NCBI GenBank assembly: GCA_036388835.1
Contig: DASVRB010000185.1
Span: 12,021-76,020, forward strand
Direction of reading: 5' to 3'
Source: Thermoanaerobaculia bacterium
Lineage (GTDB): Bacteria > Acidobacteriota > Thermoanaerobaculia > Gp7-AA8
Length of the DNA: 64,000 nt
Part shown: piece after piece, positions 26,876 to 34,476 of the stretch
Layout: every line of letters begins with the position of its first letter
Numbering within the stretch: position 1 is the first letter of the stretch
Notes under the pieces: model-generated
What the model was told of the DNA's origin: nothing
What the model saw: only the letters and a program-made list of their open reading frames with translations
Databases searched by the model: none
Translations under genes and position numbers: made by a program

Positions 26876-28477
26876 CTACGTGCCGGAACGGCGCACCACC
26901 ACCCGCTCGGCCTCGTAGGTCTGGATCACCGACAGCGTGCTGCGGCGCACGATGTCGTCGCGAAATGCGTCGGTGAGAATGCGGCCGTCCATGTCGCGGC
27001 CGATCGGCAACCCCGCGCCGAACAGCAGCGTCGGCACGACGTCGACGACAGATGCGGTCGCGGCATGCTCGCGATGTGCGGCAGCGGGGCCGCCGACGAT
27101 CAGAAAGCCGTCGTCTGCGCCCGGCTCGTCGCGCCGCACCTTTCCGGTCGCAAAGTCCCACACGTTCGCCGGCAGTTTCGGCGGCACGACGCCGGCGGGC
27201 GAGCAGATGACGAGCAGATGGTTCGGGTGCCGCCGCGCGATCGCCGCGAGCATCGCATCGAGCTGCTGCACGTAGGCGCGCACGCCGTCGCCTTTCGGTG
27301 TGCCGCGCGGCGGGAGCTCGTTGCTGAAGACATGCAGCGCGCGCTGCGCCGGCTCGAAGCCTTCCAGCGCCACCGCGGTGAGCGCGGCATTCGCGTCGAC
27401 AGTCGCCGCGGCGCTGAGGTCGGCGACGAGTGCCTCGACCACCTCGTCGCGCGCCGCGCCGGTCGCATTGAAGCGCTGCGCCTCGTTTCCGATCCCGGCC
27501 GGCCGCAACGGTGCAGTCTCGACCGACGGCCAGCGCACCACACGCGCCGGCAATTGCAGCCGCTCGAACAGCGACCACACCGGCAGCGCGTGGCCGGAGC
27601 GCAGCGATGCGCTGATCCGCTCGACGGGCGGAATCAATCCCCACACGCGAAAAGCCACGCCGTACGGCAGCAGCAGGAACGGCTCGTCGCGATTGAGCGG
27701 CGTCTTGTACGAGAAGCGGCCGGTCACGCCGTGCCGGTGCGGCAGTTTTCCCGTCGCGAGCGAAGCCCAGAGCGACTTCGTGTGCGTCGTGCGGAATGCC
27801 TCGAGCCTCGTAAAGTACGCCCGCTCGGTGATGCCGTCGAAGAACGGGAGCGAGCCCTCGCCCTTCATGGTCACGATCCAGTCGTACGGCAGATTGCGTA
27901 TGGCGATGAAGATCACCTGCGCCTGCGCGGACGGCGCGCCGATCGCCGCCACCACCGCTTGTCGCCGCTCGGTGCGATAGCTCTCGCGCCGCTGGTAGAG
28001 GAACACCGCGGAGACGCCGATCAGCACCAGACCGGTGAAGAAGATCGCGCGCGACACACCGCGGTTCGCGTTGCGCTCGATCACCCACAACAGCAGCAGG
28101 ACGAACGCAGTCGCGGTGATGACGTTCGACGCTTTCGAGAGGATGCGCATCGCGTCGACCGGCAGGTAGCCGCGCAGCAACTGCAGGTGCATCCAGTAGG
28201 TGAACGAGGAGACGAACGCCGCGCAGACGACGAATCCGAAACCGTGCGTGCGATACGGGTCAGGACGTCCGAACAGCCGCACGCGCAGCGCCCGCAGGCC
28301 CCACAGGATCGAGCCGAAAAGAAGGCCGCAGGTGAGGCCGTAAATCAGCGTCACGCTGGCCAGCCGTCCCGGCGTGATCTCGACCTGCGGATTGATGAAG
28401 TACAGCAGGTGAGCCATGTACAACCCGAAGATGGCACCGGCGAGAACGCGCTTCAGATAGGCCCAACGGATCGGCAT
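26876..28477 (-). CDS. Membrane-anchored alkaline-phosphatase-family protein (type I phosphodiesterase/nucleotide pyrophosphatase or sulfatase-like)
   Basis: About five predicted N-terminal TM helices, then a soluble domain with AP-superfamily features (..LATGKLPHRHGVTG.., ..LLVICSPAGV..). Assigned from general architecture. The overlapping plus-strand ORFs translate to R/A/G-rich low-complexity sequence. Confidence 0.55.
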   Translation of the reverse strand: MPIRWAYLKRVLAGAIFGLYMAHLLYFINPQVEITPGRLASVTLIYGLTCGLLFGSILWGLRALRVRLFGRPDPYRTHGFGFVVCAAFVSSFTYWMHLQLLRGYLPVDAMRILSKASNVITATAFVLLLLWVIERNANRGVSRAIFFTGLVLIGVSAVFLYQRRESYRTERRQAVVAAIGAPSAQAQVIFIAIRNLPYDWIVTMKGEGSLPFFDGITERAYFTRLEAFRTTHTKSLWASLATGKLPHRHGVTGRFSYKTPLNRDEPFLLLPYGVAFRVWGLIPPVERISASLRSGHALPVWSLFERLQLPARVVRWPSVETAPLRPAGIGNEAQRFNATGAARDEVVEALVADLSAAATVDANAALTAVALEGFEPAQRALHVFSNELPPRGTPKGDGVRAYVQQLDAMLAAIARRHPNHLLVICSPAGVVPPKLPANVWDFATGKVRRDEPGADDGFLIVGGPAAAHREHAATASVVDVVPTLLFGAGLPIGRDMDGRILTDAFRDDIVRRSTLSVIQTYEAERVVVRRSGT

Positions 28478-28488
28478 GCGGAGGGCCC

Positions 28489-31400
28489 ATGCTGACGGCG
28501 GCCCGGCTCAGAGAATACAACGCGCACGGTGCCGCTCTCGATCTGCTCCGCGACCTCGGCTACCCGGTCGCGCCAATCGAAGTCGATCCGCACGAGTGGC
28601 GCCGCGGCGGCGTGGACATTCCGTGGAACGGCACCACGCGCCTGCGACTCGCGGCGCGCATGCGCAACTTCGACCTGTTCGTCCTCACCGGGAACGTGAG
28701 CGGAGAAGCGGTGACACAATTTCTGCGCAGTTACGCCACCTACAATGTGATCACAAAATCCGCGCTGATTTATGAGCATGAACAAAAGCTTTCGATATTC
28801 GATCTCTCCTCGCAGCGCACGCTCCGGCGGCTCGACGTCGATCTCTCCGCTCCCAGCGCCCATGCGCTCGACCGGCTGAACCTCCTCGCCGCGGGAGGCG
28901 ATGAGTCTTCGCTGCCGCGCATCTACGATCGTGCGCTCGATCGCGAGAGTGTCACGCGCGAGTTCTTCCAGCGCTTTCGCGGCGCGGTGAACGACGTCGC
29001 GGCCGCGTTGCCGGGCGACGATCGCGAGGCGGCGGCGTCCGAGGGGCTGCTGCTGCTTTCCAGGTTGCTGTTTCTGTCATTCGTGCAGGAGAAAGGGTGG
29101 TTGAACGGCGAACGGCGTTTCCTGGTCGACCGGCTCGAGCGGGAGATGCAGCGCGGACGCGAGTTCTTTTCAGGCGTGCTCGTCCCGCTTTTCTTCGGCG
29201 CGCTCAACACGCCGCTGCACGAACGAACGCTCGCCGCGCGGCGGCTCGGGCGCATCCCGTACCTCAACGGCGGTCTCTTCGAGCCGTCCGCGTTCGAGTT
29301 GAAACATCGAGACCTGCACCTGCCGAACGAGCTGATGCAGCGCGTGCTCGAAGAGGTCTTTGAGAAATTCGACTTCCGTATCGACGAGACCGATTCCGCC
29401 GGCACGCACGTCGATCCCGAGATGCTCGGCAAAGTCTTCGAGTCACTCATGGCTGCGGACGAGCGCGCGGCGAGCGGAAGCTTCTACACGCCGAAAGAGG
29501 TCGTCGATCTCCTCACCGAACGCGCGATCTCCGAATGGCTCGGCGACGGCGGCGTCGAGAAGCTCGCGACGATCACGGTGATCGATCCAGCGTGCGGCTC
29601 CGGCGCGTTTCTCCTTTCCGCGCTCGGCGCGATCGAGAAATTGTGGCGCGCGCGAGCGGGCGACGTACCGCGCGATCTCCGGCGGCGCATCGTGGCGAAC
29701 TCGCTGTTCGGCGTCGACCTCAAGCCGGAAGCGGTGCGGCTTTGTGAGCTCCGTCTCTGGCTGGCGATCGTCGCGGGGAGCGACGCGCGGATCGAGGACA
29801 TCGAGCCGCTGCCGAATCTCGATCGCAACATCCTGCAGGGGAACGCGCTCCTCAGCCCCACGGATTTTCTCGGCGATGCGCGCACCGACATTTACGCGGA
29901 GTGGCTGGTGTCGTTGCGCGCGCAGAGCGACCTGCTCGAGCGCTATCGATCGGCGCCCCACGCGCAGCGGCCGGCGTTGTACCGGATCATCCGCGGCAAC
30001 GATCAGCGCCTCGCTTCCGAGCTGCTGGCGCGCAGCGTCGAGAACCTCGAGCGCGAGCTGCAGTACGCGTGTGCGCCGCAGCGCGATCTCTTCGGCCGCA
30101 ATGCTCCCGTCGATGCGGAGCTCTCCCAGGAACTGCAACTGCGCGCCGCCGAACAGCGGACGCTGCTCGAGCGGGTGGAAGAGGGATCGCTCGACTTCTT
30201 CTCGTTCGACGTGCACTTCGCGCACGTGATGGCGTCCGGCGGCTTCGACGTCGTGGCCGGCAATCCGCCGTGGGTGCGCAACAGCCGCATCGAGCCGCGC
30301 ACGAAACGGATGCTCAACGCGCGCTACAAGTTCTTCGGCGGCCATCGCGACGGCACCGCCTTTCATCAGCCCGATCTCTCGGTGGCGTTCTTCGAGCGCG
30401 CGTTGTCGCTCGCGAACAAGGACGGCGTGATCGCGCTGCTGATGCCGGCCAAGATCGTCAACGCGCGATACGCCGGTGCGTTGCGCCGCGCTGCCGCGAA
30501 TCGAGTGATCGCGCTCGACGACTGGAGCGACGATTCGCGCCGGCGCCGCTGGTTCGACGCCGACACGTTCCCCCTCGGCATCACCTGCGGTGCCGTCAAT
30601 GCTGCCAGGCCGCACGTGCGCATCGCTGCATCGGGCGAGTCGTTCGAATTGCCGGCAAAAGATCTCGCGTGCGGCGGTCCGTCGTCCGAATGGGCGCTCG
30701 TGCCTCCCGACGTCGCGGCCGTGCTGCATCGGCTGCGCGCGACGCATCGGCCGCTCGAGCGCGTGCATGCGCGACGGCCGTTCATGGGTGTGAAGACGGG
30801 CGACAACCGCAACTTCTTTCTCGAGGCGCAGACGATCGGCGGCCGCTACCTCACGACAACCGACGGCATTCGCATTCCGTTGACCGCGGTCTGTCGCTGC
30901 GTCCGTGGACGCGACGTGCGGCGCTGGAGCGTGAGCGCGTCGCAATGGATGCTCTGGCCTGCTGCCGGTGCTTGGCGCAAGCCGCCGCAGTGGCTGCTCA
31001 AACTCGCCGAGGCGCGCGGGCTCGAGCCGGCGGACTTTCGATTGTCGTTCGTGAGGCCGGAACACGTCGGCATCAAGGTCGTCTGGAAAGACCTCTCGCG
31101 CGTGCTCGCCGCGACCGTGTTGCCGGACTCGGTGCACATCAATGAGATGCCGTTTCCGCTGGTGCCGAATCAGACCTTGTACGGCATCGACGCCGCGTCG
31201 CTCGATGAAGCGTACGTCGTCGCGGCGCTGCTCAATTCATCGATTGCCGGAGCGTTGCTGGTGTCGGTCGCGGAGCGTGCGAAAGATGGTCACTACCGCT
31301 ATTTCGGCCGCACCGTCGCCGCGTTGCCGTGGCCCGATCCGACCGCGGAATGGGAGCATCTCGTGCGTCTCTCGCGGCGCGCTCATCGCGGTGTCGACGT

Positions 31401-31503
31401 CATGGCGGAGCTCGACGAGTGCGTTGCGCGCACGTACGGTGTGACCGCCGAGGAGCTCGCGATTCTGCAGGCGTTCGTCGAGCGGAGGACCGGTGCTCGC
31501 TGA
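28489..31503 (+). CDS. Eco57I/TaqI-like gamma-class N6-adenine DNA methyltransferase with C-terminal TaqI_C-type target-recognition domain and an uncharacterised ~230-aa N-terminal domain
   Basis: Motif X SFYTPKEVVDLLTE. Motif I VIDPACGSGAFLLSA. Motif II/III LFGVDLKPEAVRLCELRLWLAI. Motif IV DVVAGNPPWV (NPPW). TRD motif MGVKTGDNRNFFLE. The helical LLLLSRLLFLSFVQEKGWL segment is typical of type IIG / PglX / DrmMI-type methyltransferases. The N-terminal region holds a possible degenerate PD-(D/E)xK-like pattern (FDLFVL..x35..EHEQK), unconfirmed. Confidence 0.8.
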   Translation: MLTAARLREYNAHGAALDLLRDLGYPVAPIEVDPHEWRRGGVDIPWNGTTRLRLAARMRNFDLFVLTGNVSGEAVTQFLRSYATYNVITKSALIYEHEQKLSIFDLSSQRTLRRLDVDLSAPSAHALDRLNLLAAGGDESSLPRIYDRALDRESVTREFFQRFRGAVNDVAAALPGDDREAAASEGLLLLSRLLFLSFVQEKGWLNGERRFLVDRLEREMQRGREFFSGVLVPLFFGALNTPLHERTLAARRLGRIPYLNGGLFEPSAFELKHRDLHLPNELMQRVLEEVFEKFDFRIDETDSAGTHVDPEMLGKVFESLMAADERAASGSFYTPKEVVDLLTERAISEWLGDGGVEKLATITVIDPACGSGAFLLSALGAIEKLWRARAGDVPRDLRRRIVANSLFGVDLKPEAVRLCELRLWLAIVAGSDARIEDIEPLPNLDRNILQGNALLSPTDFLGDARTDIYAEWLVSLRAQSDLLERYRSAPHAQRPALYRIIRGNDQRLASELLARSVENLERELQYACAPQRDLFGRNAPVDAELSQELQLRAAEQRTLLERVEEGSLDFFSFDVHFAHVMASGGFDVVAGNPPWVRNSRIEPRTKRMLNARYKFFGGHRDGTAFHQPDLSVAFFERALSLANKDGVIALLMPAKIVNARYAGALRRAAANRVIALDDWSDDSRRRRWFDADTFPLGITCGAVNAARPHVRIAASGESFELPAKDLACGGPSSEWALVPPDVAAVLHRLRATHRPLERVHARRPFMGVKTGDNRNFFLEAQTIGGRYLTTTDGIRIPLTAVCRCVRGRDVRRWSVSASQWMLWPAAGAWRKPPQWLLKLAEARGLEPADFRLSFVRPEHVGIKVVWKDLSRVLAATVLPDSVHINEMPFPLVPNQTLYGIDAASLDEAYVVAALLNSSIAGALLVSVAERAKDGHYRYFGRTVAALPWPDPTAEWEHLVRLSRRAHRGVDVMAELDECVARTYGVTAEELAILQAFVERRTGAR

Positions 31504-33036
31504 ACATCAGCGCGACGCGGCCGACCGCGCGATCGAACTGCTGCAGACGCGCGGCGGCCTGCTGCTGGCCGATGACGTCGGGCTCGGCAAATCGTTCGTC
31601 GCGGCCGATGTCATGCGGCGGTTCGGCGGCGCGTGCGAGCTCATCGTGCCGGCGGCGCTCATCGCGCAGTGGCGCGACACGCTCGCGCGATTCGGTGTCG
31701 ACGCACACCTCCAGACGCACGACGGCATCGAGGAGGAGCGGCCGTCGACCACTCGCCGGCTCGTTGTCGTTGACGAAGCACATGCCTTTCGCAATCCGCG
31801 CACGCAGCGATATGCGGCGCTCGCGCGACGCACCGCGGGCGCGCGTGTGCTGCTCGTCACCGCGACGCCCGTCTGCAACTCCATCGACGACCTCGCCGCG
31901 CTGCTGCGCATCATCGCCCGCGACGACATACTGGCCGACGCCGGCGTTCCCTCCATCGACGTTGCCTTCGAAACGCGCGACCTCGAGTGCATCGATCGCA
32001 TCGTGGCCGCGCTGTTGATTCGCCGCGATCGCAGCGTGCTGCCGGCGTCATTGCATTTCGGTGCGCTCGATCGCCGCGTGATCCGGCATCCGGTGCTCGA
32101 CGCGCCCGAGATCGACGAGCTGCAGTTTCCGCTCGTCGGCGAGCACGCCATCCTGCGGCGTTTCCTGCGACGGAGACTCGAGTCGAGCGAGGCCGCGCTC
32201 GTCGAATCGCTGCGGCGCCAGTTGCGTTTTTATGAGCGCGCATTGAGCGCGATCGCCGCCGGCCGCACGTTGCCGAAACGCGAGTACCGCCGCGCGTTCG
32301 CGCACGAGGAAGATCGCCCCGCGTTTCAGGACGTGTTGTTCTGGGAAGTCTTCGCGCCGCCCGGCGAGGCGCGCCCCGAGGAGGTTCGCGCCGAGATGAA
32401 GCGGATCGAGGCGTTGATGCAGCGTGCGCGCACCGCGCCGGCGGTGAAACGCGAGCTGCTTGTCGAAGCATTGAACGGCGAGCCGACGCTCATCTTCACC
32501 GGCTCCGTCGCAACCGCGCGCGAGCTCGCGGCAACACTGCGATGCGGCTGCGTCACTTCGCGCGATCGCTCGCGCGACGCGGTGTTGCACGCATTCACGA
32601 GCGGGCGCATCGATCTCGTGGTCTCGACCGACATCGCGGCGGAAGGGCTCAACCTGCAGCGCGCCGGCACGATCGTCCATTACGACATTCCGTGGAATCC
32701 GGTGAAGCTCGACCAGCGCAACGGCCGCGCGCATCGCATCGGGCAACAGCGCGAGTCGGTGCGCGCGATCTACTTCATCCCGCAATCGCGTGAGACGCGC
32801 ATCGTCGAGACCATCGCGCGGAAGAACCGCAGCCGCCGCCGCGTGCTCAAGCCGCTTGCTCCGCCGGCTGCTGTCGAACGGCAGCGCACCCTCCGTCCGC
32901 GCGTCACGCGCGACGCCGCCTGCGCACGTCTGCAGAACCCGCCGGAACTGCTCGTGCGCCGTCACAAGGCCGGCATCGAGCAGCTCATCGCCGAGTTGCC
33001 GCTCGACGCGCTGCTGCGGCTCGTGCAGACGGAAGC

Positions 33037-33040
<4 letters not shown>
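31493..33040 (+). CDS. Minimal SNF2-family (SF2) helicase/ATPase
   Basis: Motif I LLADDVGLGKS. Motif II VVVDEAHAFRNP (DEAH). SNF2-specific motif III LLVTATPVCNSIDDLAALLRI. Motifs V/VI STDIAAEGLNLQRAGTIVHYDIPWNPVKLDQRNGRAHRIGQ. GTG start overlaps the methyltransferase stop by 11 nt. No nuclease or accessory domain. Confidence 0.85.

Positions 33041-34472
<1,432 letters not shown>

Positions 34473-34476
<4 letters not shown>

Follow-up and report, generated by a model that had tools for sequence, protein, structure and literature searches.

The DNA analysed here, called the window below, is a stretch of 64,000 nucleotides (nt) from a Thermoanaerobaculia bacterium of the phylum Acidobacteriota (assembly GCA_036388835.1, contig DASVRB010000185.1, positions 12,021 to 76,020 of the forward strand), and all coordinates count from its first letter. 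It carries two overlapping genes encoding an adenine methyltransferase and a SNF2-family ATPase. An earlier note made from the sequence alone had described them as open reading frames (ORFs) of 1004 and 515 amino acids (aa) overlapping by 11 nt, and the ORF list agrees exactly.

28489..31503, + strand: methyltransferase gene, 1004 aa, ATG start; MmeI/PglX-like architecture without nuclease signature (ORF list, Pfam, PADLOC).
31493..33040, + strand: gene of a minimal SNF2-family ATPase, 515 aa, GTG start (ORF list, Pfam, PDB matches).

A GGAGG is located 4–9 nt 5' of the methyltransferase ATG. The GC content of the pair (0.65–0.68) is that of its surroundings (window range 0.60–0.69), as had been stated before. 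Judged from sequence, the layout of the larger protein is an N-terminal domain, a spacer of the MmeI/PglX type, a γ-class adenine methyltransferase and a recognition domain of the BseCI/CamA/TaqI type, with the following parts:

28489..28902, + strand: N-terminal α/β domain (aa 1-138), the fastest-evolving part, without conserved catalytic residues.
28903..29388, + strand: helical spacer (aa ~139-300) of the MmeI/PglX/HsdM-N type.
29389..30588, + strand: γ-class N6-adenine methyltransferase domain (aa ~301-700; Pfam Eco57I/N6_Mtase).
29584-29610, + strand: methyltransferase motif I, DPACGSGAF (aa 366-374).
29851-30183, + strand: helical insertion of ~110 aa (aa ~455-565) between motif I and NPPW.
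30262-30273, + strand: methyltransferase motif IV, NPPW (aa 592-595).
30580-30693, + strand: indel hot-spot (aa ~698-735) at the junction of methyltransferase and recognition domain.
30589..31503, + strand: target-recognition domain (aa ~701-1004) of the BseCI/CamA/TaqI type.

Motif X is read in the translation as GSFYTPKEVV (aa 330-339), and the resulting order X-I-IV is that of the γ class. The three motifs named in the earlier note are thus present and are backed by Pfam matches to Eco57I (3.6e-21), N6_Mtase (2.7e-14) and MmeI_Mtase (1.1e-7), while the best PADLOC match, REase_MTase_IIG (7.8e-37), begins only at aa ~150. Using a full-length family profile against PDB sequences, we found CamA to be the best match among the solved structures (5e-24), followed by M.BseCI (4e-23; profile positions 614-1010, covering the C-lobe of the methyltransferase and the whole C-terminal region), MmeI (2e-17) and BrxX/PglX (about 1e-15 to 1e-12). 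A TaqI_C-type domain had been proposed for the C-terminal region; Pfam TaqI_C was not detected in the window methyltransferase at E<=0.1, being precomputed for some Gemmatimonadota orthologues, but the profile comparison shows the region to be homologous to the recognition domains of M.BseCI and CamA.

We compiled an alignment of 149 sequences spanning the methyltransferase family and expressed identities for three tiers of relatedness (close, middle and distant relatives). D366, G370, G372 and N592-P-P-W595 are 100% conserved, and the scaffold of the recognition domain is conserved at W735, G767, T770, G771, N773, R806, G807, W866, D868, Y898, N916 and R937. The helical insertion, which brings the spacing between motif I and NPPW to 226 aa and thereby to roughly twice that of CamA, is moderately conserved within the family (70/32/21% identity in close/middle/distant relatives). 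At the indel hot-spot, insertions of up to ~40 residues distinguish orthologues that are 70% identical, and identity there is down to 14-54%; the site may form a surface loop or modulate specificity.

The N-terminal domain needed separate consideration, as its segment FDLFVL..EHEQK had been suggested to be a degenerate PD-(D/E)xK nuclease. The pair might then be a type IIG/ISP-like restriction enzyme split over two genes, with a cryptic nuclease at the N-terminus of the methyltransferase. Modelled by AlphaFold on 27 diverse family members, aa 1-312 reached a pLDDT of 91 (94 for aa 1-138 alone) and show a compact α/β domain in aa 1-138 (H15-22, H34-39, E51-58, E61-67, H72-85, E90-97, E100-106, E112-118, H124-132), followed by a helical domain in aa ~139-300. 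The Foldseek search proposed in the earlier note for finding a nuclease fold gave nothing significant for the aa 1-312 model against the PDB (best E 0.097), and structure comparison lends weak support to a nuclease-like fold. The positions of EHEQK vary already in 17 orthologues of 70-81% identity (QQAKA, QHENR, EHDKT, VAGNR, CADES, VRENA etc.), and D62, K90-S91 and D105, although invariant among these 17, are lost in relatives of 30-50% identity. Across the 149 sequences only G24 is conserved at ≥85% within aa 1-145, with no conserved D, E or K; no column there contains ≥40% lysine, and the sole position with ≥50% D/E is 128. With identities of 66, 28 and 14% in close, middle and distant relatives the domain is the fastest-evolving part of the protein. 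A cryptic PD-(D/E)xK is thus rejected on conservation and the split restriction enzyme becomes very improbable, EHEQK not being conserved and aa 1-145 lacking any family-wide residue of catalytic type. The pattern is compatible with a degenerate nuclease-derived fold. We propose a degenerate nuclease-like or partner-binding domain, and a docking site for the SNF2 protein is its likely function.

In the smaller protein the ATPase motifs are complete:

31580-31594, + strand: SNF2 Walker A, GLGKS (residues 30-34).
31772-31783, + strand: SNF2 DEAH (residues 94-97).
32714-32737, + strand: SNF2 motif VI, within QRNGRAHRIGQ (residues 408-418).

The translation also contains the Q-motif glutamine Q6 and TATP (123-126), and the SNF2-family motifs Q, I (GxGK[ST]), II (DEAH), III, V and VI (QxxGRxxR) are all represented. 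Since the protein starts at the Q-motif and stops ~70 residues past motif VI, it has no accessory domain, and its earlier description as essentially a bare SNF2 core with all diagnostic motifs was correct; no domain beyond the ATPase core is present. Pfam matches are Helicase_C (9e-20) and SNF2-rel_dom (4e-12), and PDB matches are SNF2 remodellers and RapA. Profile matches to the SNF2 proteins DrmD, BrxHI, DpdE, ZorD and HKD+Snf2 are all partial and far under the NCBIfam equivalog cut-offs. None of the SNF2 ATPase motifs varies across 50 sequences from Thermoanaerobaculia and from a second phylum, the Gemmatimonadota; together with the 100% conservation of motif I and NPPW this indicates purifying selection on both enzymes.

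To see how far the pair extends, we looked at both proteins and at their loci. The protein search with the methyltransferase returned more than 120 distinct 90%-identity clusters with 69-95% identity over the full length, all from metagenome-assembled genomes (MAGs) of Thermoanaerobaculia/Acidobacteriota, the best (95%) being a Thermoanaerobaculia MAG. The search with the SNF2 protein returned at least 120 clusters of 65-92% identity, the named ones again from Thermoanaerobaculia/Acidobacteriota. An exhaustive search of representatives found 2195 methyltransferase clusters (50% identity) at E ≤ 1e-30, and the best 150 of these are mostly proteins of ~1000-1150 aa with some shorter fragments. 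Among species-representative genomes 576 stretches encode a methyltransferase relative, the best 80 belonging to Thermoanaerobaculia (44-81%) and to Gemmatimonadota including Longimicrobiales (33-38%, nearly full length), and a search started from a Gemmatimonadota copy added at least 120 further clusters at 50-79% identity. Overall the pair occurs in Thermoanaerobaculia at 44-95% and in Gemmatimonadota at 33-38% identity.

In tblastn searches of the fetched loci with the window genes, the SNF2 gene was found immediately 3' of the methyltransferase gene in every locus that was long enough, in both phyla, and the overlap in Thermoanaerobaculia is mostly the same 11 or 23 nt. The neighbourhood check proposed in the earlier note therefore came out positive, the pairing being conserved in both groups. 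A 6.3-kb contig labelled Candidatus Binatia (DATDFN010000334.1, locus L035) carries the upstream neighbour up533 (described below), the methyltransferase and the SNF2 gene at 55-60% identity in the Thermoanaerobaculia arrangement; mis-binning is a likelier explanation than a third phylum.

The Gemmatimonadota SNF2 partners, whose coordinates were derived from tblastn followed by open-frame extension, have extensions without Pfam match of ~200 aa at the N-terminus and ~200-300 aa at the C-terminus. They reach ~1030-1180 aa in loci L047-L049, L053 and L057 and ~780 aa in L063, L070 and others. The C-terminal tail of the window SNF2 protein aligns with the end of these extensions. In some Longimicrobiales (L067, L078, L081) an ORF of ~180 aa is located between the two genes.

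The flanks of the pair in the window are as the earlier note had described them, with a divergent membrane phosphatase-like gene upstream and an NtrC-type regulator downstream according to Pfam:

26876..28477, - strand: up533, transcribed divergently from the pair; polytopic membrane protein of 533 aa, alkaline-phosphatase-type domain weakly matched (Pfam Phosphodiest 5.7e-5).
33037-34476, + strand: NtrC-type sigma-54 activator/response regulator, whose ATG overlaps the SNF2 stop codon (ATGA).

An 11-nt gap (28478-28488) separates the start of up533 from the methyltransferase ATG on the opposite strand, so that the promoter of each gene must sit within the coding sequence of the other. All Thermoanaerobaculia loci that include upstream sequence keep this tight divergence, also those in which the synteny downstream is interrupted. 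By the same tblastn comparison up533 does not adjoin the Gemmatimonadota pairs, and it is probably not part of the core system. The protein, whose weak alkaline-phosphatase-type domain follows N-terminal transmembrane segments, was also considered as a PglZ analogue; this was rejected, as it has no PADLOC or NCBIfam match, has the N-terminal transmembrane region and is absent from the Gemmatimonadota loci. On the other side, the overlap of the NtrC start with the SNF2 stop suggests co-transcription. A scan for promoters and terminators yielded 0 promoter-like sites, and its terminator-like sites did not exceed background.

In Thermoanaerobaculia the order up533, methyltransferase-SNF2, NtrC-DUF192-rhomboid-PTPS-DUF1802-DnaJ is widely kept, the block reaching to ~38000 in the window. 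The part from NtrC to DnaJ is split from the pair by insertions, or absent, in L001, L018, L024, L027-L029, L036, L037, L042 and L043. The context in Gemmatimonadales differs but is also conserved and of a non-defence kind (Ser/Thr kinase, S9 peptidase, DUF402, PhoU, Na/Pi cotransporter, radical SAM, ImuB-like). Over 21-41 loci, identity to the window copy rises and falls together in the methyltransferase and in up533 (r=0.95), SNF2 (0.91), NtrC (0.89), rhomboid (0.86) and DUF1802 (0.82). When metagenome contigs were searched in the reverse direction, with up533 as the query, the methyltransferase was its neighbour in 15/15 loci that include the 5' side of up533. Vertical inheritance and conserved synteny bear out the earlier view that the pair is not a recent import.

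The overlap with the NtrC gene, together with the weak RapA matches of the SNF2 protein (8e-15; PDB RapA 1e-9), could also speak for a role in transcription or repair. A RapA-like SNF2 protein would then recycle RNA polymerase with the methyltransferase as its targeting subunit, or both genes would be merely syntenic and functionally independent. We consider this improbable, as the genes overlap and co-occur strictly in two phyla with different surroundings, their divergence co-varies (r=0.91), and the 100% conserved catalytic motifs of the methyltransferase are contrary to a purely structural role. The adjacency to NtrC is moreover lost in many loci that retain the pair.

The recognition domain follows the history of the whole protein, with 70/48/26% identity in the three tiers against 66-83/28-62/14-43% for the other domains, and no swapping of this domain was seen among the family members compared domain by domain. 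This is in contrast to defence methyltransferases, for which recognition-domain swapping is known (PMC9881135).

Mobile relatives are distant. Matches in plasmid records span at most 68% of the methyltransferase and reach 28-30% identity at best; in phage records matches are confined to the methyltransferase core. The sole IMG/VR match at 67% identity (L086, IMGVR_UViG_3300003315_000001, 37 kb) shows the order up533-methyltransferase-SNF2-NtrC as in the host and is probably either host DNA flanking a called prophage or a contig wrongly classed as viral. Two further IMG/VR viral contigs (L087, L088) carry remote methyltransferase relatives (24-27% identity) with a SNF2 gene within ~2 kb, downstream in L087 and upstream in L088, which indicates that the association of both genes recurs in mobile contexts.

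The best plasmid matches come from pANSO36A of Nostoc cf. commune and pRadio5 of Deinococcus radiophilus (~28% identity, aa 105-782 aligned). Their methyltransferases are ~1060-1110 aa long and match the type IIG profile strongly (1e-132). In these operons the methyltransferase gene is followed by 1-3 small genes (DUF262 in Deinococcus) and then by the gene of a ~1100-aa helicase, which matches the PADLOC model 'HKD+Snf2' (C3a139) at 4e-69. The ~180-aa Longimicrobiales ORF shows no similarity to the small ORF of the Nostoc operon. The Nostoc helicase shares 31% identity over 689 aa (2e-80) with the long Gemmatimonadota SNF2 protein and 25% (4e-31) with the window SNF2 protein, which aligns only to Nostoc residues 235-792; both align solely after the HKD region. 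An earlier paper mentions, without naming them, type IIG genes beside PLD-SNF helicase genes, and invertible recognition domains in some of these (PMC9881135). These operons consist of the same two protein families in the same order as the window pair, but they reside on plasmids or in variable loci, have intervening genes, a helicase with an HKD nuclease region at its N-terminus and, in some cases, an invertible recognition domain, whereas the window pair is chromosomally fixed and has neither an HKD domain nor intervening genes. The window family looks like a reduced derivative of such IIG plus HKD-SNF2 modules in which the nuclease domain of the helicase was lost and the N-terminal domain of the methyltransferase is devoid of catalytic residues.

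Among the named systems DISARM class 1 is the closest in composition, as it also has an Eco57I-family N6-adenine methyltransferase beside a SNF2 helicase (PADLOC DrmMI 1e-22, DrmD 7e-29). However, drmA (helicase), drmB (DUF1998) and drmC (PLD) are absent from every locus of the pair, DrmD has ~870-1040 aa compared to the 515 aa of the window SNF2 protein, and the latter scores 121.5 bits against a cut-off of 610 for NF038317 and 99 against 950 for NF038318. The label 'DISARM-like' given earlier thus comes down to a distant resemblance of two generic domain families. For BREX, some types of which combine PglX with BrxHI/BrxHII helicases, PglZ, BrxC/PglY, BrxA and BrxB are absent from the flanks in the window and from the orthologous loci, and the window methyltransferase reaches 48-58 bits with the PglX equivalogs, whose cut-offs are 400-900 (best NF033451, 57.7 vs 400).

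More generally, no DrmA/B/C, BrxC/PglZ, HsdR or recognisable nuclease was found by Pfam on neighbours and in gene tables within ~10 kb, neither in the window nor in the orthologous loci, in line with the absence of Drm, Brx, HsdR and nuclease partners in the earlier note. Its statement that the pair matches no catalogued system also held, the NCBIfam scores being far under cut-off (DrmD 121 vs 610, PglX 58 vs 400). Hma, MADS and BREX-related (BR) systems were rejected as well, as they have different methyltransferase families or require components absent here.

The minimal SNF2 protein and the absent nuclease domains might still mean that the pair is what decay has left of a larger DISARM, BREX or type I locus. 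The conservation data contradict this reading, which is hardly credible: hundreds of orthologues in two phyla are full-length and intact, their catalytic motifs are invariant, and no locus contains remnants of other components. The closest homologues, which could have been confined to complete DISARM, BREX or type I loci, always carry the pair alone.

The main rival, which we regard as possible but rather unlikely, is immunity of the BREX or DISARM class 1 kind that is chromosomally fixed and works without a nuclease or with one supplied in trans. With the same limited likelihood the methyltransferase would mark self, and the complex would sense unmethylated incoming DNA and block its replication or recruit a host nuclease. 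BREX and DISARM are precedents for immunity by a methyltransferase and a helicase without obvious nuclease, and work on Serratia DISARM found that DrmMI and DrmD contribute to the protection against some phages. Against this rival stand the NCBIfam equivalog scores far under cut-off and the lack of BrxC/PglZ or DrmABC near any locus. In addition, the loci show housekeeping synteny and a divergence that tracks the neighbours, and neither a defence-island context nor a patchy distribution; the recognition domain has not diversified and there is no close mobile copy.

Several restriction enzymes resemble the pair in part. Type IIG/IIL enzymes such as MmeI likewise combine a helical spacer, a γ-class N6-adenine methyltransferase and a C-terminal recognition domain in one chain. 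However, the D-X-EXK nuclease residues of MmeI (type IIL, like DrdV) have no conserved counterpart in the window family, MmeI needs no ATPase partner, and specificities diversify in the MmeI family whereas the recognition domain of the window family apparently does not. Type ISP enzymes (LlaGI-like) are one polypeptide of Mrr nuclease, SF2 translocase, methyltransferase and recognition domain; the window has two genes, no nuclease domain and a SNF2-type motor that comes after the methyltransferase. In type III systems Res is an SF2 helicase with a C-terminal PD-ExK nuclease and Mod is a β-class enzyme, compared to a bare SNF2 protein and a γ-class methyltransferase here.

Lineage-wide conservation without a cognate nuclease is shared with CamA from Clostridioides difficile and other lineage-conserved orphans (Dam, CcrM), and the window pair fits the description of an orphan methyltransferase in that no cognate nuclease is encoded at the locus, inheritance is vertical and synteny is conserved. 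CamA differs in being only 577 aa long and in acting alone, without N-terminal domains or an ATPase partner. SNF2-coupled DNA methylation is known from eukaryotes, where fungal DNMT5, or DDM1/LSH together with DNA methyltransferases, write a heritable mark. These act on cytosine-5 and on chromatin and share no homology with the window pair beyond the SNF2 core, making them a functional analogy only. Our literature searches turned up no paper that describes the methyltransferase family, nor one on a conserved pairing of methyltransferase and SNF2 genes in these phyla.

The locus thus combines the described architecture with intact catalytic motifs, no conserved nuclease residues, strict pairing and vertical inheritance in non-defence neighbourhoods. 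We read the pair as a domesticated, restriction-less and ATP-coupled N6-methyladenine (m6A) methylation module, which would have arisen from a restriction-modification module with a type IIG/IIL-like methyltransferase and a (nuclease-)SNF2 protein, and from the sequence evidence we give this a probability of about 0.5. Its descent from a restriction-type module is supported by the match of the helical spacer to MmeI and PglX and by the IIG plus HKD-SNF2 operons as nearest mobile relatives. Domestication is suggested because both enzymes are intact, the genes are paired with overlap and inherited vertically, the recognition domain is not swapped and mobile copies are missing. Such traits are hallmarks of lineage-conserved methyltransferases (Dam, CcrM, CamA) and not of defence islands. 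The earlier note had left two alternatives, and its ATP-driven methylation or epigenetic system is favoured by the vertical inheritance, the synteny, the unswapped domain and the lack of a close plasmid or phage relative, whereas its module with a cryptic nuclease is not.

In the mechanism that we propose for this methylation module, the 1004-aa protein would recognise a specific DNA sequence via its BseCI/CamA-type recognition domain and methylate adenine at N6. The co-translated SNF2 ATPase would bind the methyltransferase, plausibly via the fast-evolving N-terminal domain that takes the place of the MmeI nuclease, and would spend ATP on translocating along or remodelling duplex DNA. It could thereby deliver the methyltransferase to its sites, clear bound proteins from them or gate catalysis. 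We infer that both proteins interact physically, that methylation depends on ATP and that its substrate is DNA; the physiological role is inferred as well, and the output would be a chromosome-wide m6A mark for the host, serving self-marking or regulation instead of licensing a cognate nuclease.

Several points weigh against this interpretation. BREX and DISARM, as mentioned, can do without an obvious nuclease, one might be encoded elsewhere, and the Gemmatimonadota SNF2 extensions could hold an effector that the window copy lacks. A recognition-domain identity of ~70% is no proof of the same specificity, and the indel hot-spot lies at the start of this domain. Furthermore, the loci were gathered via the gene itself, the reverse test with up533 covers close relatives (54-83% identity), and all carriers found are uncultured MAGs.

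A bolder statement, quite possible but on the doubtful side of even, is that a SNF2 remodeller obligatorily coupled to an adenine methyltransferase may form a core, vertically inherited epigenetic writer of Thermoanaerobaculia and Gemmatimonadota. It would be the bacterial counterpart of DNMT5 and DDM1/LSH and would derive, by domestication, from a restriction-type module after the loss of its two nuclease domains.

In summary, a type IIG-like methyltransferase together with a SNF2 helicase is a kind of arrangement already known from DISARM class 1 and PLD-SNF2 contexts, and what is new is the nuclease-free, minimal and lineage-fixed form and its breadth. If our reading is true, the pair would be a bacterial methylation system undescribed in the literature found, in which a sequence-specific adenine methyltransferase relies on an ATPase of the chromatin-remodeller type, and a core gene pair kept by whole lineages of abundant soil bacteria. 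It would also clearly exemplify the domestication of a restriction-type module to serve its host, and might be used as a simple two-protein model of how SNF2 motors aid DNA methyltransferases. If it provides immunity instead, it would be the smallest BREX/DISARM-like system known and unusually lineage-fixed rather than mobile. Either way, several hundred proteins that now bear only the annotation 'N-6 DNA methylase' or 'DEAD/DEAH box helicase' would be placed in a defined family and assigned a partner.

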